DNA of 64,000 nucleotides from an uncultured Opitutaceae bacterium (GCA_937902925.1 CALFNN010000080.1:1-64000), one strand, 5' to 3'. Positions 2,907 to 58,018 are shown, counted from the stretch's first letter. Made by a program: numbers and translations. Notes: generated by a model not told the origin, from the sequence alone.

Positions 2907-2943
2907 GATAGGGTTAAGCTGGAGGGTTGAAAATCGCAGGGCG

Positions 2944-7734: not shown

Positions 7735-7852
7735 CGGTTGCGAGCGACCGCCCGGCTCCGCCAAGGTCGGCCCGAGGGTGGCGTTGCGCTGCGAATATCT
7801 AAAGGATCGGATTTCCGACTGGTGGGGCTCGTTGTTCGTCACGAGGCAGCCG

Positions 7853-8160
7853 TCACTGCTCTTTCGCGCCGCCGTCGTAGCGGATGGCGTGGCCGACGGC
7901 GAGCAGGGAGTTGTTTAGGAAGGCGAAGCCTTCCGGGTGAGAGGTGATGGGTGACGGGTGATGGGCTTCATCCTGACCTTTGGCCTCAGACCCCTGACCT
8001 ATGGCCTGGCGGATGAACGCATCCGCCAAATACCAATCATATTTGTCGGGCTTCGTGGTGCAGACGATCACTTCGTCGCCGGGTCTGAGGAGGGCATCGA
8101 CAAAAGCCTTGGCGTCGCGGCGGGCGGCGGTGGTTGCGGGCCGGCAGTCTTACGGGCCGA
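7853..8160 (-). pseudogene. 3'-terminal remnant (duplicate) of the DUF1016_N-thermonuclease gene
   Basis: ~300 bp is ~90% identical to 8912-9217. The 72-aa ORF MIVCTTKPDKYDWYLADAFIRQAIGQGSEAKGQDEAHHPSPITSHPEGFAFLNN... mirrors the C-terminus of the full gene at 8912-9973. No N-terminal part is present. Confidence 0.65.
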
Positions 8161-8834: not shown

Positions 8835-8911
8835 GTGCGACACAGTGTAGCACATCGCGGTCATGTCAATCGGGGAGGCGTCGGGCGACAGGGTCGGCGG
8901 AAGCGTGGCCT

Positions 8912-9973
8912 TCACTCCTCCTTCGTGCCGCCGTCGTAGCGGATGGCGTGGCCGGCGGAGAGGAGGGCGTTGTTGAGGAAGGCGAAGCCTTCCGGGTGAG
9001 AGGTGATGGGTGAAGGGTGATCGGCTTCATCCTGACCTTTGGCTTCAGACCCCTGACCCATGGCCTGGCGGATGAACACATCCGCCAAATAACGATCGTA
9101 TTTGTCGGGCTTCGTGGTGCTGATGATCACGTCGTCGCCGACGCGGAGGAGATTTTCCACGAAAGCCTTGGCGGCGCGGCCGGCGGCGGTCGAAATCTCC
9201 GGACAGTCGATCCCGCGCAGGCGCAGTTTCAACTGGTGCGTGAGGCCCGGCGCGACCGCGAGCGCGACGGCTAGCGTGTCGCCGTCGACGATTTTGCGGA
9301 TGGTGGCGACATAGGTGAAGAGCTGGTCCTTCGTCGCATGTTCCACCTTGCGGACGCCGTCCTCGTTCAACCGCACGATGTCCGTGGTCGTGAGCTTGGA
9401 GGCGGGGCCGAGCGAGCGGTAGAATTTGAACCCGAGATCGACCTCGGGGCCGTCGCCCAGATCGACGATCGGGTGCAGCCCCGGCGTGCCGAAGCGGGGC
9501 GTGAGGAGTCCGACGGGTGGGGCCGGCGCGGCGTCGTCCGAGGCGAGCGCGATGGCGTTGTAGGAGCGCACGCGCGTTTCGAGATCGGACTTGGTCCAGT
9601 TTTTCCGGATGGCCTCGGCTTCGAGCGTTTTTCGCTGCGCGGGGTCGGCGATCTGGATCAGCAATTGGTAGTGCGACCAGATCAATTTGGCATCGCGATG
9701 CCAAATCGGGTAGCACCGGTGGAACTGGGCGCACTGGCGCAGCGAGCGTTCGCTGATGTGGATGTCCGCAGTGAGTTTGGTGTAAACCCGGGCGCCGTAA
9801 TCGGCGCGGTCGCGAAACAGCAGCACGTGTTCGTTGATGAGCCGGCCGGTCTCGTGATAGGTGCCGAGCCACGCGCGATCGATTTCCCCGCGTCCCTGGA
9901 CGACGACGGCGATCACCGCATCGCGCAATTGCGCGTAGGTCTTCGGCGTCGGGGTGAGCGCGCGCGCGGGCAT
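8912..9973 (-). CDS. DUF1016_N (YhcG N-terminal) domain fused to staphylococcal-nuclease-like (SNase/thermonuclease) domain
   Basis: N-terminal half: YHETGRLINEHVLL...ADYGARVYTKLTADIHISERSLRQCAQFHRCYPIW...IWSHYQLLIQIADPAQRKTLEAEAIRKNWTKSDLETRV (YhcG_N pattern). C-terminal half: VDGDTLAVALAV...LRLRGIDCPE...AAKAFVENLL..VIISTTKPDKYDRYLADVFI (SNase fold). The first 211 codons of the ORF track entry are Arg-rich run-on; start set at MPARAL. Confidence 0.7.
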   Translation of the reverse strand: MPARALTPTPKTYAQLRDAVIAVVVQGRGEIDRAWLGTYHETGRLINEHVLLFRDRADYGARVYTKLTADIHISERSLRQCAQFHRCYPIWHRDAKLIWSHYQLLIQIADPAQRKTLEAEAIRKNWTKSDLETRVRSYNAIALASDDAAPAPPVGLLTPRFGTPGLHPIVDLGDGPEVDLGFKFYRSLGPASKLTTTDIVRLNEDGVRKVEHATKDQLFTYVATIRKIVDGDTLAVALAVAPGLTHQLKLRLRGIDCPEISTAAGRAAKAFVENLLRVGDDVIISTTKPDKYDRYLADVFIRQAMGQGSEAKGQDEADHPSPITSHPEGFAFLNNALLSAGHAIRYDGGTKEE

Positions 9974-10054: not shown

Positions 10055-10150
10055 AGCACCAAGCACCAGTGAAGCACCAACGTTCAAAACTCCGATGACG
10101 GGAGCTTGAAGTTTCTCTGGGGTCTGGACGTTGATGCTTGGAGTTTTCGG
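10055..10150. repeat. intergenic palindromic repeat element (CCAAGCWCC-unit family), copy A
   Basis: caccaagcaccagtgaagcaccaa...ttgaagtttctctggggtctggacgttgatgcttggag, shared with 11247-11352 and inverted at 36468-36600. Confidence 0.7.
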
Positions 10151-11118: not shown

Positions 11119-11246
11119 GGGGAAAGAAGCAACCGGGGTGACTAAGAGGACGGCGCGATACTCGACGCCGGCGTGACGAGTGACAAGTGACTTGTGACGA
11201 GTCGCCCGGGCATGCGCGGCGATACGGCGAGGCCGCGAAGGCGCCG

Positions 11247-11352
11247 AACACCAAGCTCCAACCTCCAGTGAAGCACCAAACTCCGAAGCCCCGGTAGTGA
11301 GGAATTGAGGTTTGAAGTTTCTCTGGAGCTTGGACGTTGGTGCTTGGAGCTT
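11247..11352. repeat. intergenic palindromic repeat element (CCAAGCWCC-unit family), copy B
   Basis: caccaagctccaacctccagtgaagcaccaaactccga...ttgaagtttctctggagcttggacgttggtgcttggagcttt. Confidence 0.7.
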
Positions 11353-36467: not shown

Positions 36468-36600
36468 GCTTTTCAGAAGCTCCAGACTTCAAGCGCCAAG
36501 CTCCAGAGAAACCTCGAAAATCGAAGTCGGGAAAATCAGGAGCTGGGAGGTTGGGAGCTTCATGGGAGCTTGGAGATTGGTGCCGGGAGCTTCCGGCTCG
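36468..36600. repeat. intergenic palindromic repeat element (CCAAGCWCC-unit family), copy C (inverted)
   Basis: caagcgccaagctccagagaaacctcgaaa is the reverse complement of tttgaagtttctctggagcttgg in copies A/B; also ggagcttggagattggtgccgggagctt. Confidence 0.65.
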
Positions 36601-44748: not shown

Positions 44749-45015
44749 TTGCTCCCGACGATCATGGAAACCCAGATAAAAGCGTCCCTTAACTCGCTCC
44801 TTGCGGCCATCAAAGCGGCTGATGGCCAGACGATTGCCGACGAAATGGCGAAATTGGATGGCATGTTGGAGCACGGGCGGGCGGGGCTGCATCCGCAACT
44901 GGCTCATTTTCTGGAGAACCGGAGCTACGCGAAGGCGCTGATGTTTTTGGGCGGCGAGAGCGACATTCCGGTCGGAGTGTGCGGCGGGCGGGCAGGGAAA
45001 ACGGGAGGAGCCTGA
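44749..45015 (+). CDS. small hypothetical protein, translationally coupled to yciH
   Basis: 88-aa ORF ending TGA 3 nt before the yciH ATG. No family recognised, coding status uncertain. Confidence 0.35.
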   Translation: MLPTIMETQIKASLNSLLAAIKAADGQTIADEMAKLDGMLEHGRAGLHPQLAHFLENRSYAKALMFLGGESDIPVGVCGGRAGKTGGA

Positions 45016-45017
45016 AT

Positions 45018-45443
45018 ATGGCCGGCGGCGGAAAGATTCCGACGGATGGCGGCGGCGGCCTTGGGCAGAATCCGTTTGGCGCGCTGAGCGCCGCGGGGTT
45101 GCCGGTCGCTCCGAAGGTGGTTTTGGAGCAGGCGGCGGCGAAGCTGGCCGGGAACCCGGGGCGGCCGGGGACAGTCGCGACCGCCGCTCAGACGAAGAAT
45201 CGTGGACGCGTGGATATCCGGCGCGAGACGGGAAACCGCGGCGGAAAGACGGTCACGGTCGTCGACGGATTCGTGGGGATCGGGCTGCCGGAAAAGGAGC
45301 AGCTCGCGAAGAAAATGCGCGCGGCGTGCGGCTGTGGCGGAACGGTGAAGGACGGCGCGATCGAGATCCAAGGCGACCAGCGGGAAAAAATCGCGGCGAT
45401 TTTGAGCGCGGCGGGATTCCGGCCGGTATTCGCGGGCGGATGA
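45018..45443 (+). CDS. yciH: translation initiation factor SUI1-family protein (YciH-like)
   Basis: RRETGNRGGKTVTVVDGF...CGCGGTVKDGAIEIQGDQREKIAAIL matches SUI1/YciH. GGGAGGAG SD-like sequence 7 nt upstream. Confidence 0.8.
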   Translation: MAGGGKIPTDGGGGLGQNPFGALSAAGLPVAPKVVLEQAAAKLAGNPGRPGTVATAAQTKNRGRVDIRRETGNRGGKTVTVVDGFVGIGLPEKEQLAKKMRAACGCGGTVKDGAIEIQGDQREKIAAILSAAGFRPVFAGG

Positions 45444-45542
45444 AGAAATGGGTCTCGCGAAGGACGCGAAGGAAACGAAGGGAAGCAAAGGGGCAGGGAG
45501 AAGGACCGGGGGCTGTCTCCGACGCGCCTTTCGCGAAGCGAT

Positions 45543-46421
45543 TCAGGCGGCCAGGCCGGCCGTGAGGGCGAGGGCGCCTTTGGCCCGGTTGAGAATGTAG
45601 AGGTGGTAACCGGGCGCGCCGTTGGCGAGCAGGCCGCGAATCTGGTTGAGCGCCCAGTCGACGCCGACGATCTCGACGACCTCGGGGCTCTCGGCGGCGA
45701 CCTCGAGGCGGGTGGTGAGCGGCGCGGGGAGCGTCGTGCCGCAGATCGAGGTGAACCGGCGGATCTGTTTCAACGACAGCACGGGCATGATGCCGGGGAC
45801 GATCGGCACGGTGATGCCGGCCGCGCGGCATTTTTCGACGAAGCGGTAATAGACGGCGTTGTCGAAGAAGAGCTGCGTCGTGATGAAATCGGCGCCGGCG
45901 TCGACCTTGCGCTTGAGATGGGTGAGGTCGGCGTCGAGCGACGGTGCCTCGGGGTGTTTCTCCGGATAGCCGCCAACCCCGAGGCAGAAATCGGCGTGGC
46001 GCGACTTGAGCAGGGCGACGAGGTCGCTCGCGTAACGAAGACCGTCCAGATAGGGCGTGAACGTGGTCTCACCCTTCGGCGGATCGCCGCGCAGCGTCAT
46101 GATGTTCCGGAAACCGCTCGCGTGAATCCGGTCGGCGACCTCGGCGAGCTCGGCGCGCGAATGGCCGACACAGGTGAGGTGGGGCATGACCGTGAAGTTG
46201 AACTCCGACTTGAGCAGCGCGCTGACCTGCGCGGTGCGTTCGCGGGTCGAGCCGCCGGCGCCGTAGGTGACGGACACGAAATCGGGATTCATGCGCCGGA
46301 GCGCGGCCGCGGTGGCGCGGAGGGCCTCGACGCCGGCATCGTCCTTGGGCGGAAAAAACTCCAGCGAGCGCAGCGGGCGGCGTTGCGCGAAGAGTTCGGA
46401 GATGGGCCGGTCGGGCGTCAT
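45543..46421 (-). CDS. metF: 5,10-methylenetetrahydrofolate reductase
   Basis: SLEFFPPK...FVSVTYGAGGSTRERT...LTCVG...IMTLRGDPP...GVGGYPEKHPEA are MetF hallmarks. Start 46421 preferred over 46499. Confidence 0.85.
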   Translation of the reverse strand: MTPDRPISELFAQRRPLRSLEFFPPKDDAGVEALRATAAALRRMNPDFVSVTYGAGGSTRERTAQVSALLKSEFNFTVMPHLTCVGHSRAELAEVADRIHASGFRNIMTLRGDPPKGETTFTPYLDGLRYASDLVALLKSRHADFCLGVGGYPEKHPEAPSLDADLTHLKRKVDAGADFITTQLFFDNAVYYRFVEKCRAAGITVPIVPGIMPVLSLKQIRRFTSICGTTLPAPLTTRLEVAAESPEVVEIVGVDWALNQIRGLLANGAPGYHLYILNRAKGALALTAGLAA

Positions 46422-46522
46422 GCGTGGCGGCGACGGAAAGCGAAAGGCGGCCGGTCGTAAAGCGGCGAGTGCGGCATGCGTGGCGGACGGCGCGGGCACG
46501 CTGGGGTCCGGGGGGCCGGAGA

Positions 46523-46549
46523 GGTTGTCAACTAATAGTTGACAACCGG
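46523..46549. promoter_or_regulatory. palindromic box TTGTCAAC-TAATA-GTTGACAA, copy 2, upstream of metF
   Basis: Identical 21-nt core to 19787-19807, ~100 bp upstream of the metF ATG. Confidence 0.5.
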
Positions 46550-46677
46550 CGCTTTGCCCGGCGGAGCGGGGACCGTCGACGGGCGATTCCGGTCGCCGAG
46601 ACGGGAGCGTCGACGGGCGGTTCCGATCTACGAGGTAGGCCCGTCGACAAGGTGGGGCCGTTGACGGGGCGGGGCGA

Positions 46678-48477
46678 TTAGACGGAGCGGGCGAGGTAGG
46701 CGCGCCAGCCGCCGAAACGCGTGATGTCCTCGGCGCCGGCGAGGGCGGCGGGTTCGCAGAGGAAACCTTTCACGGATTCGCCCGTGGCGAGGACCACGGT
46801 GCCGATGCAGAGCGGCGATGGCACGGCGGCAACAAAACTGCCGAAAGCGGCAACGGGGAGTTCCCACACTTCCACGGCGATGGATGCACCGCCGTCGGCG
46901 ACACGGACGAGGCCGGGTTTCGGCGGGGTTGAGTTGGGCAGGGCGTGGAGACGGTAGACCGGCGCGGTGTTGCCCGACCAGACGAGGCGAGCGCCACGGT
47001 CGGTGAGTTGATGATTGAGGGGCAGACCGGAGAGATGGGCGCCGACGACGGCGAGCTGGATGGTCGTTGGTGCGGCCGTAGTGGCGGTGGGCGGCGATGA
47101 CGGCGCGGGCGGGAGCGGATGCGAGGTGGCGCCGAGTTTGCCGCCGATGGCGGCGTGCCAACGGGCGGCAAGGGCGAGGAGAGTGGGCTCGCTCCACGCG
47201 GGTGCGATGAACGTGACGCCCCACGGGGCGCCGTCGCGGCGGATGCCGGCGGGCACGGCGAGGGCGGCGAGGTCGAGGAGGTTAACGAAGTTGGTGTAGG
47301 TGCCGAGGCGGGTGTTGAGGAGCAACGGCTCGGCGGCGACCTCGGCGACGGTGTAGGGGCGCGGCGCAGTGGGGACGAGGAGCACATCCATTTTCTCCCA
47401 CTCGGCGGCGGCGCGGCGGGCGAGGGCGGCGAGGCGATAAAAGCCTTCGAACGTGTCGGCGGCGCTGAGATTCGCGGCGCCCTCGACGATCTTGCGCGTG
47501 ACGGGGAAAAACGCGTCCGCGTTTTTCTGGTGAAATGCGCGGAGCGCGGCCCAGCGCTCAGCGACCCACGGACCCTGGTAGAGCAAGGCGGCGGCTTCGC
47601 GGAAAGGGGAAAAGTCGATCTCGACGAGCTGGGCGCCGAGGGCGGTAATGCGGGAGAGATTTTCGCGGAAGAGGCGTTCGGCTTCGGCGTCACCGAAGAA
47701 CTCGAGCGCGGTGGGTTCGGGAACGCCGACGCGAAGCGACGCGGGAGCGGAGGTGGTGGTTGCGCGCGAGCGGGAAAACGAATCCTCGGGATCGAAGGCC
47801 TCGGCGACGCGGGCGACATCGGCGGCGTCGCCGCAGGTGAGCGCGAAGATCGAAACGCAGTCGAGCGAGCGGCAGGCGGGGACGACGCCGCGGGTGCTGA
47901 GGGCGCCCTTGGTGAGCTTGAAGCCGACGAGGTTGTTCAGGCCGGCGGGGATGCGGCCGGAGCCGGCGGTGTCGGTGCCGAGGGAAAACGAGGCGAGGCC
48001 GGCGGCGACGGCGACGGCGGAGCCGCTGCTGGAGCCGCCGGGGATCAGGTCGGCGCGAAACGGATTGCGCGGGACGCCATAGGGCGAGCGGACGCCAACG
48101 AGGCCGGTGGCGAACTGGTCGAGGTTGGTCTTGCCCACGGGAATCGCGCCGGCGTCGAGGAGACGCTGGACGACGGGCGCGGAGTCGGCGGGCGTGTAGG
48201 CGAACTCCGGGCAGCCGGCGGTGGTGGGGACGCCGGTGAGGTCGATGTTGTCCTTGATCGCGAAGGGAACGCCGTAGAGCGGCAACGTGGAGCGGTCGAG
48301 CGATTCGAGACGGCGGGCGTGGACGAGGAGTTCGTCGCGCGAGAGGAGACGAATCCAGACGGCGGGATCGGCGTGCGTGGCGATGCGACGGAGAAGTTCG
48401 TCGACGAGAGCGGTCGGCGTGAGGGAGCCGTCGGCGTAGGCGGCACGGAGGGCGGCGAGGTCGAGGGAGAAAGGCAT
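46678..48477 (-). CDS. atzF: allophanate hydrolase
   Basis: Amidase-signature domain (GGSSSGSAVAVAAGLASFSLGTDTAGSGRIPA) and the AtzF C-terminal domain. Start at cat 48475-48477. Confidence 0.85.
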   Translation of the reverse strand: MPFSLDLAALRAAYADGSLTPTALVDELLRRIATHADPAVWIRLLSRDELLVHARRLESLDRSTLPLYGVPFAIKDNIDLTGVPTTAGCPEFAYTPADSAPVVQRLLDAGAIPVGKTNLDQFATGLVGVRSPYGVPRNPFRADLIPGGSSSGSAVAVAAGLASFSLGTDTAGSGRIPAGLNNLVGFKLTKGALSTRGVVPACRSLDCVSIFALTCGDAADVARVAEAFDPEDSFSRSRATTTSAPASLRVGVPEPTALEFFGDAEAERLFRENLSRITALGAQLVEIDFSPFREAAALLYQGPWVAERWAALRAFHQKNADAFFPVTRKIVEGAANLSAADTFEGFYRLAALARRAAAEWEKMDVLLVPTAPRPYTVAEVAAEPLLLNTRLGTYTNFVNLLDLAALAVPAGIRRDGAPWGVTFIAPAWSEPTLLALAARWHAAIGGKLGATSHPLPPAPSSPPTATTAAPTTIQLAVVGAHLSGLPLNHQLTDRGARLVWSGNTAPVYRLHALPNSTPPKPGLVRVADGGASIAVEVWELPVAAFGSFVAAVPSPLCIGTVVLATGESVKGFLCEPAALAGAEDITRFGGWRAYLARSV

Positions 48478-48486
48478 TTCGGAAGA

Positions 48487-48590
48487 GTGTCTCGCGAAGG
48501 ATTGGAAGGGAGCGAAGGATAAAACCAAAGGAAGGAAAAGGTTGGAGCTGGGATGGATTGGGCCTTCGCTTCCTTCGAATCCTTCGCGGG
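48487..48590. repeat. CGAAGG-unit imperfect hairpin element between uca stop and atzF start
   Basis: Arms cgcgaaggattggaagggagcgaagg and ccttcgcttccttcgaatccttcgcg, ~26 bp, separated by a ~30-nt loop. Confidence 0.65.
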
Positions 48591-48604
48591 AAATTTGGAT
48601 TGGA

Positions 48605-51600
48605 TCAGCTTTCCAGGACGATGAGGGTTTCGCCGGCGTTGACGGGGCGGCCTTCGGCGCAGCGGATTTCGCGGACTTTGCCTGCGCGGCTGGCGACGAC
48701 GGTGATTTCCATCTTCATCGATTCGAGGATCACGAGCGCGTCACCCTCGTTGACGGCGGCGCCGGCGGCGACGGCGATTTTCCAGACGTTGCCGGGGATA
48801 TGGGCGATCACGGCGGTGCAGCCGGCGGGAATCGCCTGCTCGTCGACGGCGGCGGCCGAATCGGATTCGGAGGAGAAGTTGAGCTGGCCGGAAATCTCCC
48901 AGCGATGGCGCTCGGCCTCGAAGGCGGCCTGCTGGCGGGATTTGGCGGCGGCGATCGTAGCGGCGTTGGCGGCGAGAAATTTTTCGTAGTCGCGGAGACG
49001 GAAGGTCGTTTGCTCGATTTTCAGCTGCGCGCGACCGTGGGTAAAATCTTCACGGAACTTCGTGAGCTCGGCGTTCGTGACCGGATAGAAACGAATCTGG
49101 TCGAAGAAGCGGAGGAGCCACGGGTGGCCGTCGGTGAACTCGGCGGTTTGCTTGTAGCGGTTCCACATCTGGCAGGTGCGGCCGATGAACTGGTAGCCAC
49201 CGGGGCCCTCCATGCCGTAGACGCAGAGGTAGGCGCCGCCGATGCCGACGGCGTTTTCCGGCGTCCAGGTGCGGGCAGGATTGTATTTCGTGGTGACGAG
49301 ACGGTGGCGCGGATCGACCGGGGTGGCGACGGGGGCGCCGAGGTAAACGTCGCCGAGCGCGAGGACGAGGTAGCTTGCCTCGAAGGCGATGCGGTGGACG
49401 TCGGCGACGGAATCGAGGCCGTTGATGCGGCGGATGAACTCGATGTTGCTGGGGCACCACGGCGCGTCCTTGCGGACGATCTGCATGTATTTGCGGATCG
49501 CGAGAAGGGTGGACTCGTCCTCCCAGGAGAGCGGCAGGTGAACGATGCGCGAGGGCACCTCGATGTCGTCGACGGCGGGGAGTTCGGACTCGGCGCGGAG
49601 CAGAATCTCCATCAGGCGTTCGAGCGGAAGCAGGCGGGCGTCGAAATGAATTTGGAGCGAGCGGATGCCGGGCGTGAGGTCGACGATGCCGGGGAGGTGG
49701 TGGCGTTCGAGCCAGGTTTGGAGCGCGTGGACGCGCATCCGGAGCGCGATGTCGAGGACGAGCGGACCGTATTCGACGAGGAGGTAGGCGTCGCCGGCGC
49801 GGCGGTAGACGACCGCGGGGGCGGCGGGGCGGGCGGGGATGGCGTGGAGGATGGCGGGTTCGGAGGGCGAGGAATGACGAATGACGGATGACGAATGACG
49901 AATGGCGGAGAGGCGGAGGGATTCGATTTCGGCGTCCTGGGCGGTCGCGATGATCCGGGCTTGTTCGGCGGTGAGGGCACGGAAGCGGACCTTGTCGCCG
50001 GGCTTGAGCTGGCCGATTTTCCAGAGTTCGCCGCTGGCGATCGTCGCGGGACAGACGAAGCCGCCGCAACTCGGGCCGTCGGGGCCGAGGATGATCGGCA
50101 TGTCGCCGGTGAAATCGATCGCGCCGATCGCGTAGGCGTTGTCGTGGATGTTCGAAGGGTGCAGGCCGGCCTCGCCGCCGTCGCGGCGCGCCCACTGCGG
50201 TTTCGGGCCGATGAGGCGGACGCCGGTCCGGGCGGAGTTGTAGTGGACTTCGTAGATGGCGCTGAAGAGAGCGGCGATGTCGTCGTTGGTGAAAAAATCT
50301 GGCGCGCCGTGCGGGCCGTAGAGGACGCCGATATCCCAGTCGCGCGTGAGCGGCGAGTGGATCGAGGCGGGTGCGCGGAGGAGCGGAGCGGCGTCGGTCA
50401 CGCCGGCGGGCGTGGCGCGATTGACGCGAAGGACATCGCCGGTGCGGAGGGCGCGGCCGGAGTGACCGCCGAAGAGGCCGAGCGTGAAGGTGGATTTGCT
50501 GCCGAGGTAATCCGGGACGTCGAGGCCGTGGCGGATGGCGAGGTAGGCGCGGAGGCCGGGGCCGTCGACGGAAGCGAGTTGGAGGGTCTGGCCGCGTTTG
50601 ATGCGAAAGGCGCGATGAAAGGCGATGGGTTTGCCGTCGAGCGTCGCGGGCATGTGCGCGCCGGTGAGCGCGACGACGGCGGCCGTGTTGAAGCGGAGCC
50701 TGGGGCCGTTGACGGTGAGTTCGAGGCCGGCGGCGGTGTCGGGGTTGCCAACGAGACGGTTGGCGAGGCGGAACGAGCGGCCATCCATCGGGCCGGAGGG
50801 TGGAACACCGACGTCCCAATAGCCGAGGCGGCCGGGATAATCCTGCACGGTGGTCTGGGTGCCGCCCTCGAGGACGTCGATCGTCGAGGCGGCGTAGGGC
50901 AGCGTGGCGAGGTATTTGGTGGTGACGCCGCCGGCGCGAAACCCGGTGGAGGCGGCGATCTGGCGAAGGTAGTCGAGATTGGTTTCGAGGCCGTGGAGGC
51001 GGGTGTCGGCGAGGGCGGCGTCGAGGCGGGCGAGGGCATCGGCGCGGTCGGAACCGCGGACGATGATTTTCGCGAGGAGCGGATCGTAGAACGCGGAGAC
51101 CTCGGTGCCGCGCTCGATCCACGTCTCGATGCGGGCGGACGTGGCGAAATGGACGTCGGTGAGGGTGCCGGCGGCAGGTTGAAAGTTTTTGCCGGGATCC
51201 TCGGCGTAGACGCGGACCTGGATCGAGGCGCCGGTGGAGGCGGGCGTGAAGTTGGAAAGATCAAGTTCGCCGGCGGCGGCGCGAAGCATCCATTCGACAA
51301 GATCGATGCCGGTGACTTCCTCGGTGACGCCGTGCTCGACCTGGAGGCGCGTGTTGACTTCGAGAAAATAGAATTCGCCGGTGGCGTTGTCGTAGACGAA
51401 TTCGACGGTGCCGGCGTTCTGGTAGCCGGCGGCGGCGCCGAGGCGGGCGGCGCAATCGAGGAGGCGCGTGCGCTGCGCGGGCGACAGGCCGGGAGCGGGC
51501 GTCTCCTCGATGACCTTCTGGTTGCGGCGCTGGACGGAGCAGTCGCGTTCGCCGACGGCGACGACGTGGCCGCGGCCGTCGCCGAAAATCTGGACCTCGA

Positions 51601-52222
51601 TGTGGCGGGCGTGCTCGACGAATTTCTCGAGGAAGATGCCGCCCTCCTTGAAATTGTTTTTCGCGAGGCGGCCGACGGCGGCGAAGGCGGCGGAGAGCTC
51701 GGCGGGCTGGCGGATGAGCGACATGCCGATGCCGCCGCCGCCGGCGGTGGACTTGAGCATGACGGGGTAGCCGATGCGCGCGGCCTCGGCGCGGGCGTGA
51801 GCCTCGTCGCGGAGAAGTTCGGAGCCGGGGAGGAGGGGGACGTTTTGTTTTTGCGCGATGGCGCGGGCGGCGTGCTTGAGCCCGAACATGCGCATCTGGT
51901 CGCCAGTGGGGCCGATGAAGACGAGGCCGGCGGCGGCGCAGGCGTCGGCGAAGGCGGGATTTTCGGAGAGGAAACCGTAGCCGGGATGGATGGCTTGAGC
52001 GCCGGTGGCTTTGGCGGCGGCGATGATCTTGTCGGCGTCGAGGTAAGACTGAGCGGCAGGAGCGGGGCCGAGGTGGACGGATTCGTCGGCTTGCTGGACG
52101 TGGAGGGAGTGCCGGTCGGCGTCGGAGTAAACGGCGACGGACGCGATGCCCATGTGCCGCAAGGTGCGAATCACACGGCAGGCGATGGCGCCGCGGTTGG
52201 CGATGAGGACTTTGGAAAACAT
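48605..52222 (-). CDS. uca: urea carboxylase (biotin carboxylase + carboxyltransferase/AHS domains + biotinyl domain)
   Basis: N-terminal biotin carboxylase (MFSKVLIANRGAIACRVIRT), central allophanate-hydrolase-subunit-like domains, C-terminal biotin attachment motif EAMKM variant ESMKMEI. Confidence 0.9.
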   Translation of the reverse strand: MFSKVLIANRGAIACRVIRTLRHMGIASVAVYSDADRHSLHVQQADESVHLGPAPAAQSYLDADKIIAAAKATGAQAIHPGYGFLSENPAFADACAAAGLVFIGPTGDQMRMFGLKHAARAIAQKQNVPLLPGSELLRDEAHARAEAARIGYPVMLKSTAGGGGIGMSLIRQPAELSAAFAAVGRLAKNNFKEGGIFLEKFVEHARHIEVQIFGDGRGHVVAVGERDCSVQRRNQKVIEETPAPGLSPAQRTRLLDCAARLGAAAGYQNAGTVEFVYDNATGEFYFLEVNTRLQVEHGVTEEVTGIDLVEWMLRAAAGELDLSNFTPASTGASIQVRVYAEDPGKNFQPAAGTLTDVHFATSARIETWIERGTEVSAFYDPLLAKIIVRGSDRADALARLDAALADTRLHGLETNLDYLRQIAASTGFRAGGVTTKYLATLPYAASTIDVLEGGTQTTVQDYPGRLGYWDVGVPPSGPMDGRSFRLANRLVGNPDTAAGLELTVNGPRLRFNTAAVVALTGAHMPATLDGKPIAFHRAFRIKRGQTLQLASVDGPGLRAYLAIRHGLDVPDYLGSKSTFTLGLFGGHSGRALRTGDVLRVNRATPAGVTDAAPLLRAPASIHSPLTRDWDIGVLYGPHGAPDFFTNDDIAALFSAIYEVHYNSARTGVRLIGPKPQWARRDGGEAGLHPSNIHDNAYAIGAIDFTGDMPIILGPDGPSCGGFVCPATIASGELWKIGQLKPGDKVRFRALTAEQARIIATAQDAEIESLRLSAIRHSSSVIRHSSPSEPAILHAIPARPAAPAVVYRRAGDAYLLVEYGPLVLDIALRMRVHALQTWLERHHLPGIVDLTPGIRSLQIHFDARLLPLERLMEILLRAESELPAVDDIEVPSRIVHLPLSWEDESTLLAIRKYMQIVRKDAPWCPSNIEFIRRINGLDSVADVHRIAFEASYLVLALGDVYLGAPVATPVDPRHRLVTTKYNPARTWTPENAVGIGGAYLCVYGMEGPGGYQFIGRTCQMWNRYKQTAEFTDGHPWLLRFFDQIRFYPVTNAELTKFREDFTHGRAQLKIEQTTFRLRDYEKFLAANAATIAAAKSRQQAAFEAERHRWEISGQLNFSSESDSAAAVDEQAIPAGCTAVIAHIPGNVWKIAVAAGAAVNEGDALVILESMKMEITVVASRAGKVREIRCAEGRPVNAGETLIVLES

Positions 52223-52228
52223 CGGAAA

Positions 52229-52332
52229 GGTGTCTCGCGAAGGATTCGAAGGGGACGAAGGTTCGAAAAAAGGAGAGCCGGAATATCTCTACTGGATTGG
52301 ACGTTCGCTTCCTTCGTATCCCTCGCGAGACA
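52229..52332. repeat. CGAAGG-unit imperfect hairpin element immediately upstream of uca start
   Basis: Arms gtgtctcgcgaaggattcgaaggggacgaagg and cgttcgcttccttcgtatccctcgcgagacat; same family as 48487-48590; single arms at 52743-52780, 54805-54837, 45450-45500. Confidence 0.65.
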
Positions 52333-52340
52333 TGGGATTA

Positions 52341-52742
52341 TCAGGCGAAGAAATCTTTTCCCTCGGCTCCGTTCGTGACGCGCGTGATGCCGTTTTTGAG
52401 ATGAACTTCGTTGAAGTTGATGAGGAACCCGAGCTGGAGCGGGATCAGGCGAAGGTAATTCCAAGTCGTCTTCTTGAAGAGGTCGGTGACTTGAGCCACG
52501 GACTTCAGCTCGACCAAGACGAGATTGTCGATGATGAGGTCGGCGCGAAAGCCGACTTCCTCCAGCAGTTCACCATCGTAAAAAACAGGAATCGGTTTCT
52601 GTCGTTCGATTTGGTGACCAAGCTTTCGGAGTTCCTTCGCCATCGCGGTTTCGCAAGCGGACTCCAGCAGACCCGGCCCGAGTTTCGTGTGGGCTTTGAA
52701 CGCGGCATCTAACGCGGCTTTTCCAACGATCTCTTGGTTCAT
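52341..52742 (-). CDS. GxxExxY protein (PD-(D/E)XK-like small protein)
   Basis: LGPGLLESACETAMAKELRKLGH...FRADLIIDNLVLVELKSV...LQLGFLINFN is the GxxExxY family pattern. Only the C-terminal 133 aa of track ORF 52341-53351 are genic. Confidence 0.8.
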   Translation of the reverse strand: MNQEIVGKAALDAAFKAHTKLGPGLLESACETAMAKELRKLGHQIERQKPIPVFYDGELLEEVGFRADLIIDNLVLVELKSVAQVTDLFKKTTWNYLRLIPLQLGFLINFNEVHLKNGITRVTNGAEGKDFFA

Positions 52743-52780
52743 GATTCCTTCGTTTCCTTCGGACCCTTCGCGAGACACCC

Positions 52781-53416
52781 TCAGGGATTCCAGATCAGGA
52801 CCTCGATCGGCGTCGGGTTGTAGGCGTTGCAGGGGTTGTTGAGCTGGGGGCAGTTCGAGATCACGCAGACGACGTCGCGCTCGGCGCGGAGTTCGACGTA
52901 GTAGCCCGGGGCGCTGACGCCGTCGGCGAAGGTGAGGCGGCCGTCGGGCGTCACAGGGACGTTCATGAAGAAATTGATGTTCGGGGCGACGTCGCGCTTG
53001 CCGAGATCGGGGCGCCAGGCGTGGACGCCGCAAATGAAGCTGTCGCGACAGGCGTGCATGAACTCCTTGTCGTGGGCGTAGCGCATCGTGTTGCTCTCGC
53101 GGGAGCAGGCGCCGCCGAGCGTGTCGTGTCGGCCGCAGGTGTCGGCGACGATGGTAAGAAGCGGGTCGCCGAGCTGGGAGTAGAGCGTTGTCCCGGTGCT
53201 GAGATAGAGCGCGGCCTGACGCTGGACGGTGTCGCTCGCGCTGTAGCGGTTGAACGGATCGTGCGCGTCGTAGAAGAGAGTGTCCGCGGCCTGGTTGCCC
53301 TCGAGGTCGACGATGCGGAGGATCTGGCCGCGTTTGATTTCGTGCGACCACGGATCGCCGGCGGGGATGACATGGCGATAAAGAGCCACGGTTGGATCGA
53401 GCGTGCTGGTGGTCAT
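52781..53416 (-). CDS. urea carboxylase-associated protein (DUF1989 family), copy 2
   Basis: 211 aa ([40 protein letters not shown]...) with the cupin-like DUF1989 pattern. Paired with the adjacent paralog next to urea carboxylase, as in the known uca cluster. Confidence 0.75.
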
Positions 53417-53421
53417 GGCGA

Positions 53422-54177
53422 TCAATCGCGGAGGGCGTGGTAGGTTTCGGTGTTCGCGAAGGCGCGGACGTTTTCGGGGCGGGAGCGGCGGCACGCGTCG
53501 TCGGGAGCGGGAGGCGAAGTGCGGAAGACCTCGAGGCGGACGGAGCGCGGGTGATAGGCGGGATCGGGATCGAGCGGATGCTGGCAGGTGTTGAGGACGA
53601 CGAGCGTGTCGAGTTCGAAGCGCAGGTCGACGTGGGCGCCGGGTGGCGAGTTGTCGGGCACGAAGGTGAGGCGGCCGGTATCGTCGGCGACGACCTTGCT
53701 GAAAAGATTGAGGTTGGGGACGAGGTCGCGCGGGCCGAGGCCCCATTTCGCCAGTTCGATGAGAAAGCAGTCGCGGGCGTTGCGATGCCAGTCGTTGCGG
53801 GCGGTCTGATAGTTTTTCAGGCCGTATTTTTTCGCGACGAGGCTGGCGTCGGAGCAGCCGCAGACGGTGTCGTGCCAGCCGGCGGTGTCCGCGGTGATCG
53901 AGGCGAGGATGCGGCCCATGTCGGAGTGGAGGCAGTAGGGCGCGCGGAGATAGAAAATGTGCTGGCCCTTGAGCGTGTCGGGGAGGTTGTAGCGCTCGGT
54001 CGGAACGTCGGCGTGATAGAGGAGGAGGCCGACGTTGGCGCCGCCGTCGAGATCGGTGAGGCGGAGGGTCTTGCCGCGGGAGAGCACGGCGGACCACATG
54101 CCGGCGTGGGTGAGCGTGCGGGCGAAGATCGGGGCGGCGGGCGCGGGGTCGATGATGAGGTCGGGAGCGGCGGGCAT
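53422..54177 (-). CDS. urea carboxylase-associated protein (DUF1989 family), copy 1
   Basis: 251 aa, paralog of the downstream gene ([19 protein letters not shown]...). Stop 5 nt upstream of the copy-2 start. Confidence 0.75.
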
Positions 54178-54359
54178 GGCGGGCGGGGGAGGAATGGGAC
54201 CGACGGGACGAATGGGACCAATGGGACGGATAGGGTGGGTGGAGATGGCGGATGGAAACGGGAGGATGTTACGATTATTTATATTCGTGTGCTGACAAGA
54301 GCAGAGCGCGGGCCAAACCCGAGACGGCGTGCGGCGGGCAAGACCGTGCGAGCGAGGCG

Positions 54360-54797
54360 CTACAGGAGCGGCGGCATCGCGGTGGCGGTGAGGTTCAGGC
54401 GGGCGTGCTTCACGCCCTTGCAGGCGGCGAGCGTGTCGGCAAGGCTGCGCAGATCGCGGGCGGGACCCTGCACGAGGAGCACCTCGAGATAGTGATGGTG
54501 CTCGAGATGGACGTGGGTCGAGGTGACGACCATGAGATAATTCTGGTGCTGGATGTCGGCGAGCTTCCGCTGGAGATTTCGTTTCCGATAGTCGTAAACG
54601 AGGCTGATCGTGCCGGCCATCGACTTGGTGCCGAGCTCCTGCGCGTGCTCGATCAATTGCTCGCGGGCCATCTCGGCGATGGCGTGGGAGCGGTTGGGGA
54701 GCTGACGACGGGTGACCATGTCGTCGAGCTCGTCGAGGAGGTCGGCGGGGAGCGAGACGCTGAAGCGGGCGAGCTGGGGGCGGCGGGCGGCGGTCAT
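54360..54797 (-). CDS. nikR: nickel-responsive transcriptional regulator NikR
   Basis: Ribbon-helix-helix N-terminus ([38 protein letters not shown]) plus C-terminal ACT-like domain with the His/Cys nickel site ([21 protein letters not shown]...[10 protein letters not shown]). Confidence 0.8.
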
Positions 54798-54884
54798 GGG
54801 CGGGGTGTCTCGCGAAGGGAGCGAAGGGCGGAGGAGGCAGACTTCATGGCCGGGAGGGTTTGCGCAAGACGTGGCGGTCGCGGG

Positions 54885-55793
54885 CTATTCGACATCATCG
54901 CCGACCTGCGTCAGGCGGACGATGGGAAGTTTTTCCACGGCGGATTCGGTGCGGGGGTGGATGAGTTCGTCGATGCGACGGCGGGTGGCGAGGAACTCGG
55001 GCGCGGTGAACTGGTCGGCGTGACGCGGGCGCGGGACGGAGACCTCGATGAGTTCCTGCACCTCGCCCGGGTGCGCCTTGAGCACGAGGATGCGGTCGGC
55101 AAGCAGCACGGCCTCGTCGAGGTCGTGCGTGATGAAGAGGATGGTGACGTCGACGTTGCGCCAGATTTCCATCAGGTGCATCTGCATCTGGCAGCGGGTC
55201 TGGGCGTCGAGGGCGCCGAACGGTTCGTCCATGAGCAGAATCCGGGGCTGGGCGGCGAGGGCGCGGGCGATGGCGGTGCGTTGCTTCATCCCGCCGGAGA
55301 GTTGCGCGGGATAGGAATCCTGAAAACGCGAGAGGCCGACGAGATCGATCCACTGGCGGGCCTCGCTGTCGGCCTGACTGAGCGACATGCCTTTCATCGT
55401 GAGCCCGAACATCACGTTGCGCTTTACGGTGAGCCACGGGAAGAGCGTGTAGCCCTGAAACACCATGCCGCGATCGGGGCCGGGGCCGTGGACCTCGTGG
55501 CCGTCGAGCAGGATCCGGCCCGAGGTCGGCTGCTCGAGGCCGGCGACGAGGCGGATGAGGGTGGACTTGCCGCAGCCCGAGGGCCCGATCACGCAGATGA
55601 ATTCGCGCCGATGGACGCGAAACGAAACGTCGCGCAGCGCGGTGACGATGCCGCCATCGTTGCCGGCGAACTGGCGGCCGAGGTGCTCGACGTCGAGAAC
55701 GACGGGGCGTTCCTTCAGCCGGCGGAAACGATCGGCGACCGCGGGCGATTGCGCGCGATAGTCGGGCAGGAAATCTTCGACCGGAGCGCTCAC
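54885..55793 (-). CDS. ABC transporter ATP-binding protein (NitT/TauT family)
   Basis: Walker [31 protein letters not shown], Walker [16 protein letters not shown] start overlapping the permease stop (GTGA). Confidence 0.85.
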
Positions 55794-56836
55794 GATCCCG
55801 TGGGAGGTTGGTCGTTGTCCGGGAACAGCAGCACGTCGCGCCCGGCGAAGAGCCGCTGGAAGAAATTGCGAATGCCGGTCGGGCGGGGATCCTTCCAGAC
55901 GAAGATCTGGCGGCCGAGAAACGCGAGGGCCTGGTCGGTGGTGAGCCCGATCACGCCGATGATGATGATGGCGGCGTAGACGTTGTCGAAGTTGCGGTAT
56001 TTGGCCTGCTGGTTGATGAAAAACGTGATTCCGCTGCTGACGCCGACGACCTCGGCGACGATGAGGTAGGTCCACGCCCAGCCGAGGAGGATGCGCTGGT
56101 CGTTGTAGATGTCGACAAGGCAGCTCGGGACGATGACGCGAAGCAGGAGCTGGCCGGGGCGGGCGCCGAGGGTTTGCGCGGCCTCGACGAGCGCGGGGTC
56201 GTGGCGGCGGACGGTGTTGGCGATGACGAGGACCTGTTGAAAAAACGTGCCGAGGACGATGATGGCGATCTTCGGCGCGTCGTAGATGCCGAGGACGGCG
56301 ACGGCGAGCGCGCCGAACGCCGGCGCTGGCATGTAGCGAACGAAATCGATCACCGGCTCGAAGAGGCGCGAGACCGGGCCATAGGCGCCGCAGACGATGC
56401 CGAGAGGGACGCCGACGAGCGACGAGATGACGAAGCCCCAGAAGATGGTCTTGATGCTGAGCGCGAGACTCTGGTGAAGCCACGGCTCGCCGCGGAGAAT
56501 CGGCGGCGTCGTGAAGGCGGTCCAGAATGCGCGACCGACCTCGTGCGGCGCGGGGAGAAAAACGGGATTCGCCGGCCGGCCGGTGGCGGCGTGGCCGCCG
56601 GCGGCGACGGCCTTCGCATTTTCCTCGGCGAAGGCCGGGCGCTCCACGAGGAGGCCCGGCTTGAACCACGCGACGTCACCCGGCGAATCGATCCGCATCA
56701 GCGGGTGCCAGATCCACGGCACGTAGCTGACGAGCGCCCAAAGCGCCAGCGGCAGGAGGAACGAGCAGGTCGTCAGGACCGCACGCAGGCGAGGCGAGGG
56801 CTCCCTGCCGATGGCCACCCAGCGGGCGCGAGACAT
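55790..56836 (-). CDS. ABC transporter permease (NitT/TauT family)
   Basis: Six TM helices with EAA-like loop ([23 protein letters not shown]). Confidence 0.8.
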
Positions 56837-56872
56837 GAACGCGAGGTTGAACGGGCGCCGGTGGCCCGGGAA

Positions 56873-57868
56873 TTATTTTTTCGCGGCGGCGATGGCCTCG
56901 GCGGTGAGCTTGGCGTCGAAGTAAGTGGTGACGTTCTGCGACTCCTTGTAGACGCTGTTTTTCACGTTGAAATCGTTGGCGACGGCGGAGGAGCCGGCGA
57001 GCGAATTGAAGCCGGGGCCCTTCCTGGCGATGATTTTCGCGCTGTCCGCGAGCGTGAGAAAATGGGTGCCGCCGATGAACGCCGCATAGTCGGCGGGCGT
57101 GGAGCCGGTGCGCGCGGCCATGATCTTCAGGGCGTCGTCCTTCGTGGCCGGGTCGGTGATGTAGGCGAGGACCTTGTCCCAGACCGAGACGAGCTTCACC
57201 CATTCGGCGCGATGCTGCGCGAGGCTCTGCGGGGAGACGGCGATGGTGTCGTAGATGAGGCCGGGCTCGTTGGCGCTGGTGTAGATGGCGGTCGAGCCGG
57301 CGACGGCCTTGAGCGCCTGGCCGGCGTTGGGATTCCAGGCGGCGATGGCGTCGACCTGGCCCGAGGCGAAGACCTGCGGCGTCTGGTTGGTCGGCGTGTT
57401 GACGATGGTGAGATCGGCCTCGCTCATCCCGATTTTCTTGAGGGCGTTGAGCAGCATGAGGTGCTCGACGAGGCCGACCTCGAGGCCGATCTTCCTGCCC
57501 TTGAGCTCGGCGAGCGACTTGATGCCGGGCTTCGCGACGATCATGTCGTTGCCGTTCGAATAGTCGGTCAGCATGATGACGACGTTCTTCGCGCCGTTGG
57601 CGCCGGTGACGAGCGAGTCGCCGTTGGTGACCATGACGGCGTCGACCTTGCCGGCGGTGAACGCGTCCATCGACGGGGCGTATTCGAACCATGAAAATTC
57701 GGCGTCGACGCCGGCGTCCTTGAGCCAGCCCTTCTGGATGGCGACCTCCCACGCAACCCAGCCGGGCCAGTCGCTATAGGCGATTTTAAGCGGGGCGGCC
57801 GGCAGGATGGAAGGCAGCGCGGCGAGCACCGGAAGGGCGAGGCAGAGAAGGCGGCGGAGGAGCTTCAT
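56873..57868 (-). CDS. ABC transporter substrate-binding protein (NMT1/THI5-like, NitT/TauT family)
   Basis: Signal peptide then periplasmic binding fold (LKIAYSDWPGWVAWEVA...). Belongs with the permease/ATPase and the urea carboxylase region. Confidence 0.8.
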   Translation of the reverse strand: MKLLRRLLCLALPVLAALPSILPAAPLKIAYSDWPGWVAWEVAIQKGWLKDAGVDAEFSWFEYAPSMDAFTAGKVDAVMVTNGDSLVTGANGAKNVVIMLTDYSNGNDMIVAKPGIKSLAELKGRKIGLEVGLVEHLMLLNALKKIGMSEADLTIVNTPTNQTPQVFASGQVDAIAAWNPNAGQALKAVAGSTAIYTSANEPGLIYDTIAVSPQSLAQHRAEWVKLVSVWDKVLAYITDPATKDDALKIMAARTGSTPADYAAFIGGTHFLTLADSAKIIARKGPGFNSLAGSSAVANDFNVKNSVYKESQNVTTYFDAKLTAEAIAAAKK

Positions 57869-58018
57869 GGCGGGATCGTGTTACGAATGTTTTCGGGTGT
57901 GTTACGCCTCGGTTTCAGCACGTAGTGTGCCGGGCCATCGAGAATTTGCCCATGGGGTGGAGGCAGCGGCGCGGGCATCGATAGCGGCGCCGTGTCTGCC
58001 GGATGCCGCGCGGACGAC

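Follow-up and report, generated by a model that had tools for sequence, protein, structure and literature searches.

What are the CGAAGG-unit repeats that surround a urea carboxylase operon in an uncultured Opitutaceae bacterium, and why do several of them lie directly beside start codons? The question arises from a stretch of 64 kb (GCA_937902925.1 CALFNN010000080.1:1-64000), which is called the window below. The first-pass annotation of this DNA offered two roles for the repeats: translational control by pyrimidine repeats in 5' leaders, or structured elements resembling repetitive extragenic palindromic (REP) sequences. The REP-like reading is supported here and can be sharpened to a hairpin cassette that resembles the intervening sequences (IVS) of 23S rRNA and has a GxxExxY nuclease as cargo. 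The new observation is that the GxxExxY gene is cargo between the CGAAGG arms. We consider it probable, with considerable room for doubt, that the CGAAGG hairpins are IVS-like and REP-like selfish palindromic cassettes of Verrucomicrobiota, which enclose either a short loop or a GxxExxY nuclease gene.

Arms were located with a hidden Markov model (HMM) built from arm sequences. All seven arms of the window lie within 45450-54830, which are 9.4 kb around the urea carboxylase operon, and the HMM found no arm in the other 54 kb of the 64-kb window. The 12-mer GTCTCGCGAAGG has five exact sites (45452+, 48489+, 52232+, 54807+ and 52765-), so that the repeated motif described in the first pass is confirmed by five exact sites and seven arms. 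With up to one mismatch there are 7 matches, compared to 1.2 expected, a number reached in 0 of 100 shuffles. At 5/5 exact sites, the 12-mer is continued by N4-GAAGG, which corresponds to a unit period of 9 nt. From all loci together, 150 unique arms gave the consensus tGTCTCGCGAAGG-atN-CGAAGG-gaG-CGAAGG. An arm thus has a GTCTCGCGA terminus and, behind it, three tandem 9-nt units; described from the 12-mer, it is GTCTCGCGAAGG followed by two further 9-nt GCGAAGG units, with a length of about 33-38 nt. The window contains two full hairpins and three solo arms:

45450-45482, plus strand: solo GAAGG-type arm with three units (arm HMM 31 bits, E 1.6e-7).
48486-48593: full hairpin without an open reading frame (ORF), arms 48486-48525 (plus) and 48557-48593 (minus), loop 31 nt (arm HMM and fold).
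52229-52332: full ORF-less hairpin, arms 52229-52267 (plus) and 52296-52332 (minus), loop 28 nt (arm HMM and fold).
52745-52779, minus strand: arm directly upstream of the GxxExxY start (arm HMM 35.5 bits).
54805-54830, plus strand: truncated solo arm with two units (arm HMM 23 bits, E 4e-5).

The two-arm hairpins that had been proposed at 48487 and 52229 are confirmed: their folding energies are -43 to -58 kcal/mol, with z at about -6 whichever strand is folded, and 0/200 shuffles were equally stable. The first (38-nt arms, 82% complementary; fold z -6.5 and -6.9) occupies the spacer from the urea carboxylase stop (48605) to the allophanate hydrolase start (48477). The second (fold z -5.7 and -5.9) is flanked by the stop of GxxExxY (52341) and the start of urea carboxylase (52222). 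The arm at 45450-45482 has a weak, degenerate partner at about 45519-45540 (fold z -3.5 for the minus strand, -0.95 for the plus strand). For the truncated arm at 54805-54830, a full hairpin is found at the corresponding site upstream of nikR in locus L129.

The arm at 52229-52267 has a second inverted partner, the arm at 52745-52779, which is 485 nt away and 88% complementary over 33 nt (52229-52261). The GxxExxY gene (52341-52742) sits between these two inverted arms, and its ATG is found 2 nt past the arm 52779-52745. In the mRNA, this arm reads GUGUCUCGCGAAGGGUCCGAAGGAAACGAAGGAAUC-AUG, and it adjoins the second DUF1989 gene at that gene's stop (52781).

This bracketing is not restricted to the window. 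Among metagenome loci with a GxxExxY protein that is at least 64% identical, an upstream arm is present in 16/16; those with downstream sequence nearly all have a downstream arm, that of L133 being below threshold (12.7 bits). The GxxExxY genes of L041, L055, L061, L118 and L121-126 are likewise bracketed. The GAAGG arm is mostly 2-15 nt (in a few loci up to about 55 nt) upstream of the ATG; past the stop, nearly all loci that have sequence there carry a CCTTC arm at a distance of 0-40 nt. The minimal form is represented by L122, which reads DUF1989 TGA, TGTCTCGCGAAGGATCGAAGTAGACGAAGGTTCT, ATG...GxxExxY...TAA, CTTCGCCCCCTTCGCTCCTTCGCGAGAAAC, 6 nt, urea carboxylase ATG. Wherever a plus-arm/minus-arm pair encloses 130-1500 nt with no arm between, the enclosed ORF codes for GxxExxY, which is the sole direct cargo found. 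The bracketed gene occurs in at least six genomic contexts (the urea carboxylase operon, L132/138, L139, L140/141, L055 and L061). L055 and L061, from the same bin of a metagenome-assembled genome (MAG), are 90% identical from a point 3 nt ahead of the outer arm, while their flanks are unrelated; the module boundaries thus coincide with the arms. In this MAG, the corresponding spacer of its own operon (L033) holds only a 93-nt ORF-less hairpin.

More distant GxxExxY subfamilies have other bracketing repeats, mostly inverted and composed of 9-10-nt tandem units:

L140: GAGTCGCGCGAAGGACGCGAAGGCAGCGAAGG.
L172: GCCACAAATGAACACGAATGAACACAAAT.
L173: CCGCAGATAGACGCAGATAAAC.
L174: units CACAAAGAA.
Soil group, about 50% identity: units GCAAAGAC / GCCAAGG / GCTAAGG.
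Bacteroides finegoldii (L176), between radA and a gene for an FAD protein: units CACAGAGGA.
Bernardetia (L177): units CACAGAGAA.

The repeats of L140, L172, L173, L174, L176 and L177 have alignment scores of 36-66, compared to a shuffled maximum of about 20-26. In L178 (a Sphingomonas parapaucimobilis plasmid), L176 and L177, the GxxExxY gene is co-oriented inside a highly conserved gene pair with spacers of 2-60 nt (fabD / fabG-acpP, radA / FAD protein and ade / mannose-1-P guanylyltransferase, respectively). In L075 (960-1500), a further block of unit repeats (CACGAAACAC / AAAACACACGAAAT) stands before each CCTTC arm. It is similar to the arms of the L174 subfamily, and the repeats may be composite or hybrid.

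The enclosed protein (133 aa) is assigned to PF13366 (PDDEXK_3, E 7.5e-31) and TIGR04256 (E 6e-31), with an HMM score of 107 bits compared to cut-offs of 35 (TIGR04256) and 22 (PF13366). Residues D68, E78 and K80 (D...E-x-K motif) are invariant across GxxExxY subfamilies. The median dN/dS of the orthologs is 0.09, with saturated dS, and judged from these sequences the ORF is under purifying selection. The window gene has a GC content of 53.7% (window: 66.9%) and a third-position GC content (GC3) of 0.68 (neighbours: about 0.85). It reads GLLESACE where orthologs have GLLESVYE, the name-giving Tyr (Y30) being replaced by Cys. The window copy may be weakened or recently acquired. An AlphaFold model was poor (pLDDT 60, below 50 in the C-terminal third); a Foldseek search with it against the PDB returned nothing below E 0.7, and a PDB sequence search was also empty. 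On viral contigs, just 2 GxxExxY loci were found. PF13366 was entered as being of unknown function in a 2012 survey, and the literature searched describes no function for the GxxExxY (TIGR04256) or TIGR02436 families. Nor did the full-text literature searched on GxxExxY, PDDEXK_3, TIGR02436 and the IVS protein, subscription-only papers and database family notes aside, yield an account of the arm-bracketed architecture.

The repeats themselves form a large family. A scan of one genome per species with GTCTCGCGAAGGNNNNGAAGG as query returned at least 120 loci, at least 71 of them from Verrucomicrobiota, mostly Opitutaceae/Opitutia (Rariglobus, Nibricoccus, Opitutus and many MAGs); the loci outside this phylum are low-scoring single matches. 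Full hairpins detected by the arm HMM in the fetched loci number 34, and their loops measure 2-119 nt; solo arms number about 98. Genes in these related loci were called with a codon log-odds caller, which is crude, above all for start codons. Confident elements are extragenic in 79 of 86 cases, in spite of a called coding share of about 76% of the DNA. Between genera, arms are 88-97% identical and loops are unalignable, with flanking coding sequence being 75-81% identical. In being repeated, palindromic, extragenic and present in many genomes, the elements are REP-like, as the first pass had suggested.

Like REPs and REP doublets (REPINs) with their REP-associated tyrosine transposase (RAYT), a combination known as the REPtron, they are imperfect extragenic palindromes in many copies, occur as singlets and doublets, lack a target-site duplication and include one gene flanked by inverted repeats. 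It might thus be argued that a REP- or MITE-type family (MITEs being miniature transposable elements with inverted repeats) is moved by an unseen RAYT/HUH or DDE transposase, and that GxxExxY is an unrelated selfish ORF, e.g. a free-standing homing endonuclease, which lands in hairpin loops. A precedent is IS1397, which inserts into REPs. That the elements are extragenic palindromes without target-site duplication speaks for this alternative. In the arm-selected loci, there are about 25 ORF-less copies for each GxxExxY copy, and the same spacer can carry other cargo with other arms, which also fits. The neighbourhood is less favourable to it: in the fetched loci, Y1_Tnp was found in 0/66 neighbouring proteins and Y2_Tnp in 1/66, so that among these neighbours one transposase gene adjoins an element and none of the Y1/RAYT or DDE kind recurs. 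In REP/RAYT systems, a conserved tetranucleotide tag, GTAG or CGTC, marks one end (PMC3733652). The consensus of the 150 arms, however, starts with tGTCTCGCGAAGG and has neither tag, and the GTAG-tagged REPs in which O. terrae is reported to be rich are a family distinct from the CGAAGG arms. The arms described here are also longer, are composed of 9-nt tandem units and are conserved across genera, and the flanked gene codes for a PD-(D/E)XK protein rather than a Y1 HUH transposase. Comparison to MITEs gives a similar picture. The arms are equivalent to terminal inverted repeats, and the similarity between L055 and L061 begins at the arm; no direct repeat flanks the listed copies, matching flanks merely extending the palindrome, and no parent insertion sequence with these termini was found in about 0.9 Mb of loci. 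Finally, the unit-built arms that abut start and stop of a GxxExxY gene differ from one subfamily to the next, which is hard to obtain by insertion into arbitrary hairpins. We thus regard a foreign mobilizing enzyme with an unrelated GxxExxY passenger as unlikely, though as a serious contender.

The closest parallel to a hairpin cassette with its own cargo is provided by the 23S rRNA IVS of Coxiella and Leptospira (PF05635, TIGR02436). The Coxiella IVS, a selfish element, carries its S23p ORF in the loop of a 28-bp stem, which consists of terminal inverted repeats; an AG-rich Shine-Dalgarno-like stretch and three tandem heptamers directly precede its ATG, and RNase III cleaves within the stem (PMC4990558). 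Shared features are a stem formed by inverted repeats (about 28 bp or longer), a loop containing a small ORF, an AG-rich Shine-Dalgarno-like stretch and short tandem repeats ahead of this ORF, the existence of ORF-less versions, and insertion into a tolerant region that is, or here would be, transcribed. One spacer provides an instance of alternative cargo. In L027 (1842-2242), an Opitutaceae MAG, the DUF1989-urea carboxylase spacer, which holds GxxExxY in the window, contains a PF05635/TIGR02436 ORF (E 1e-13). This is bracketed by 42-nt inverted arms of TAGTTGGTA units, and in the next spacer (2907-3029), arms of the same type form a hairpin without an ORF. The systems differ in that the CGAAGG elements reside in spacers of protein-gene operons and not in helix 25 or 45 of 23S rRNA. 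Their cargo is a PD-(D/E)XK protein (PF13366/TIGR04256) and not the PF05635 four-helix bundle, which was encountered only in L027. Copy number is high, with many ORF-less and solo-arm copies, and excision by RNase III would apply here by analogy.

Other palindromic families are more distant. ERIC/IRU, Correia (NEMIS) and Rickettsia palindromic elements are imperfect, intergenic, co-transcribed palindromes of about 70-130 nt; ERIC is conserved between related genera, Correia RNA hairpins can be RNase III substrates, and Rickettsia palindromic elements are occasionally found in-frame within genes. The CGAAGG family resembles them as intergenic imperfect palindromes, and the in-frame insertions of the Rickettsia elements compare to an arm in L041 (649-687, see below). 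It has, however, no sequence relationship to them, and its unit-repeat arms are distinctive. We know of no member of these families that encloses a nuclease ORF. Free-standing homing endonuclease genes of phages, in which hairpins sequester the ribosome binding site (RBS), are similar in that a small nuclease gene lies between conserved co-oriented genes (here fabD/GxxExxY/fabG or radA/GxxExxY) and in that the RBS region can pair. In contrast to the CGAAGG family, they lack abundant ORF-less hairpin derivatives, and homing or cleavage by GxxExxY is only putative.

The cassettes might work as follows. The GxxExxY nuclease would recognise the periodic unit-repeat arms, and ORF-less hairpins would be non-autonomous derivatives or targets of the nuclease-carrying form. 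The operon spacers would be transcribed, and the arms would pair in the RNA and form stems of about 26-35 bp. By analogy to the 23S rRNA intervening sequences, RNase III would cut such stems, which would make an insertion tolerable and would separate the cistrons. The stem would also limit translation of the enclosed nuclease, the only Shine-Dalgarno-like sequence of which lies in the 5' arm. In the transcript of the window, one CCUUC arm (52267-52229) would be contested by two arms of GAAGG type, 52779-52745 and 52332-52296 (all in mRNA sense). It is tempting to speculate that, with this competition, formation of the local hairpin may leave the GxxExxY leader free.

The proximity to start codons is best considered together with the genes of the window, which are:

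45543-46499, minus strand: MTHFR.
46678-48477, minus strand: allophanate hydrolase (atzF).
48605-52222, minus strand: urea carboxylase.
52341-52742, minus strand: GxxExxY / PD-(D/E)XK protein.
52781-54183, minus strand: two DUF1989 genes.
54360-54797, minus strand: NikR-like regulator.
Within the operon region 44979-57900, minus strand: ABC transporter genes.

The operon genes are thus on the minus strand, with SUI1 (44979-45443) alone being on the plus strand. The first-pass annotation gave close gaps to minus-strand starts, and these are as described: 9 nt for atzF (48477), 7 nt for urea carboxylase (52222) and 7 nt for nikR (54797). Adjacency also holds for the GxxExxY start (52742, 2 nt from its arm), the coordinate of which had been off by one. 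That the copies mostly abut start codons is correct for these four. The copy at 45450, however, lies in the spacer between the convergent stops of SUI1 and MTHFR. The elements fill their spacers almost wholly, and their other ends are equally near stop codons. It is because of this nearly complete filling that elements are found 2-9 nt from four start codons.

The pyrimidine repeats had been suspected to control initiation as anti-Shine-Dalgarno mimics or, when inverted, as Shine-Dalgarno donors. The four window copies at 2-9 nt from starts would be consistent with this, as would the GxxExxY leader, which does read GAAGGAAUC-AUG, as expected for the copy in opposite orientation. A positional bias towards start codons, which had been named as the check, was not found. 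Among 86 elements from related loci, with genes from the crude caller, element ends face a stop in 44 cases, a start in 26, and nothing within 200 nt in 48. Start-facing gaps are often 6-18 nt, and stop-facing gaps are the same. In the window, a Shine-Dalgarno-like motif is present at just 6 of 56 starts (again from the crude caller) and absent from the other 50; ordinary leaders are C/U-rich, often with a CTTTCC(G/C)-like sequence directly before the ATG (e.g. ctttccgATG). CCUUC before an AUG is therefore not special, and an anti-Shine-Dalgarno role has nothing to oppose, since the genome hardly uses Shine-Dalgarno sequences. Moreover, a full hairpin reads 5'-GAAGG...CCUUC-3' on either transcribed strand. 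For the 20 hairpins with a defined gene direction, the sense fold is more stable in 8 and the antisense fold in 12, so the sense strand has no advantage. Copies are also found between convergent genes, and one arm is in-frame inside a urea carboxylase. Start-codon control was rejected on the basis of the end census and the leader survey, and we consider it very improbable. The adjacency to start codons is a by-product of elements filling short operon spacers.

That in-frame arm belongs to Rariglobus L041, which has a hairpin in every operon spacer. It is located in the linker of urea carboxylase (649-687) and is read as ...PNLRSLRILRETT.... This inter-domain linker is a repeat hot spot: in L118 (about 3416-3523), a TCAGAT-type tandem repeat occupies the same site. 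L041 begins at the start of a MAG contig with a perfect fold-back around a hairpin element (1-240), an assembly artefact which such palindromes can cause; its first 120 nt were left out.

The hairpins might alternatively serve the host, acting as RNA processing or stability elements that set cistron ratios in operons, whatever their selfish origin. The stems are very stable, the same spacers are occupied across genera with conserved arms, and the elements lie inside co-oriented operons, where a promoter and terminator scan found no consensus at the elements. Occupancy varies, however. Between urea carboxylase and atzF, a single hairpin is present in the window, in L033 and in L118, whereas L122 has two there and the 25-nt spacer of L124 lacks one; other spacers of orthologous operons likewise vary. 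It is the arm sequence rather than the base pairing that is conserved, a sense-strand bias is not seen, and some copies lie between convergent genes or in a coding region. A present-day host function of this kind seems quite unlikely to us.

A further proposal is that the arms are operators or a riboswitch of a urea/guanidine carboxylase regulon, e.g. for the NikR-like regulator. The clustering of seven window arms within 9.4 kb around the operon, and the arm-rich operons of L041, L118 and L121, may be cited for it. Elsewhere, however, the elements adjoin genes from 114 unrelated Pfam families, and the occupied spacers differ between orthologous operons. An Rfam scan of the window at gathering score gave 0 matches (no rRNA among them), and by E-value only sub-threshold miRNA-precursor noise at 26-31 bits. 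Guanidine-I (ykkC) riboswitches regulate this operon type elsewhere, and none was found in the window at gathering score. We attribute hardly any probability to a regulon-specific element. The NikR-like gene is kept in this operon across Opitutaceae, which suggests protein-based operon regulation.

Several points weigh against the cassette reading. In the loci examined, neither a transposition or homing event nor a target-site duplication nor a clean pair of empty and filled sites was found; the 25-nt spacer of L124 was considered as an empty site and rejected, being unalignable to filled spacers. Compared to the window gene, the arm within the L041 urea carboxylase takes the place of other sequence without a change in length. 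The GxxExxY copies are for the most part syntenic orthologs belonging to a single operon, which implies few independent events. The sequences are MAG-derived, and L055 and L061, coming from a MAG, could represent two strains. At variable columns, the complementarity of partner arms is 0.604, compared to 0.542 for shuffled partners (50 arm pairs). Because this excess is small, arm pairing results mainly from shared units and not from compensatory change, and structural covariation was set aside as an argument. The strand comparison given above likewise provides no pointer to selection at the RNA level. Bracketing is incomplete in some distant groups: Sphingomonas fabD/GxxExxY/fabG has an upstream GCGAAGG-type arm only, Treponema has a short inverted repeat, and the repeats are direct rather than inverted in Prevotella and Fusobacteria; among the genes of these four groups, direct repeats, weak repeats or one arm take the place of inverted arms. 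The nuclease is a predicted PD-(D/E)XK enzyme with a poor structure model, and cleavage of the stems by RNase III is proposed by analogy.

Two other repeats occur in the window. A second, unrelated intergenic palindromic family with units CACCAAGC / GCTTGGAGC (e.g. TTGAAGTTTCTCTGGAGCTTGGACGTTGGTGCTTGGAGCTTT) is found at 10058-10150, 11245-11350 and 36470-36600. Two of its copies are direct and the third is inverted, and a cargo ORF was not recognised in it. A direct repeat of 283 nt (89% identity; 7849-8131 and 8908-9190, 1059 nt apart) probably represents two paralogous coding segments.

Annotations of two small protein families, GxxExxY (TIGR04256) and the four-helix-bundle "23S rRNA IVS protein" (TIGR02436), abound among bacterial genomes. 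Bracketing by hairpin arms ties the two families together and links them to rRNA intervening sequences and to REP-like repeats. It is possible, though we would put it forward only tentatively and as rather doubtful, that GxxExxY and the four-helix-bundle genes are cargo of an unrecognised class of hairpin cassettes that settle in transcribed spacers in many bacterial phyla, with the nuclease recognising its own unit-repeat arms and driving homing or copying, and with REP-like ORF-less families such as the CGAAGG one being its non-autonomous offspring. If true, two orphan protein families that are widespread would gain a function, and the origin of rRNA intervening sequences would be explained. 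For genome annotation, the cassettes account for long structured spacers and stray small ORFs in conserved operons, such as those for urea/guanidine carboxylase and fabD-fabG. They also call for caution: pyrimidine repeats should not be taken to signal translation in this lineage, with its scant use of Shine-Dalgarno sequences.

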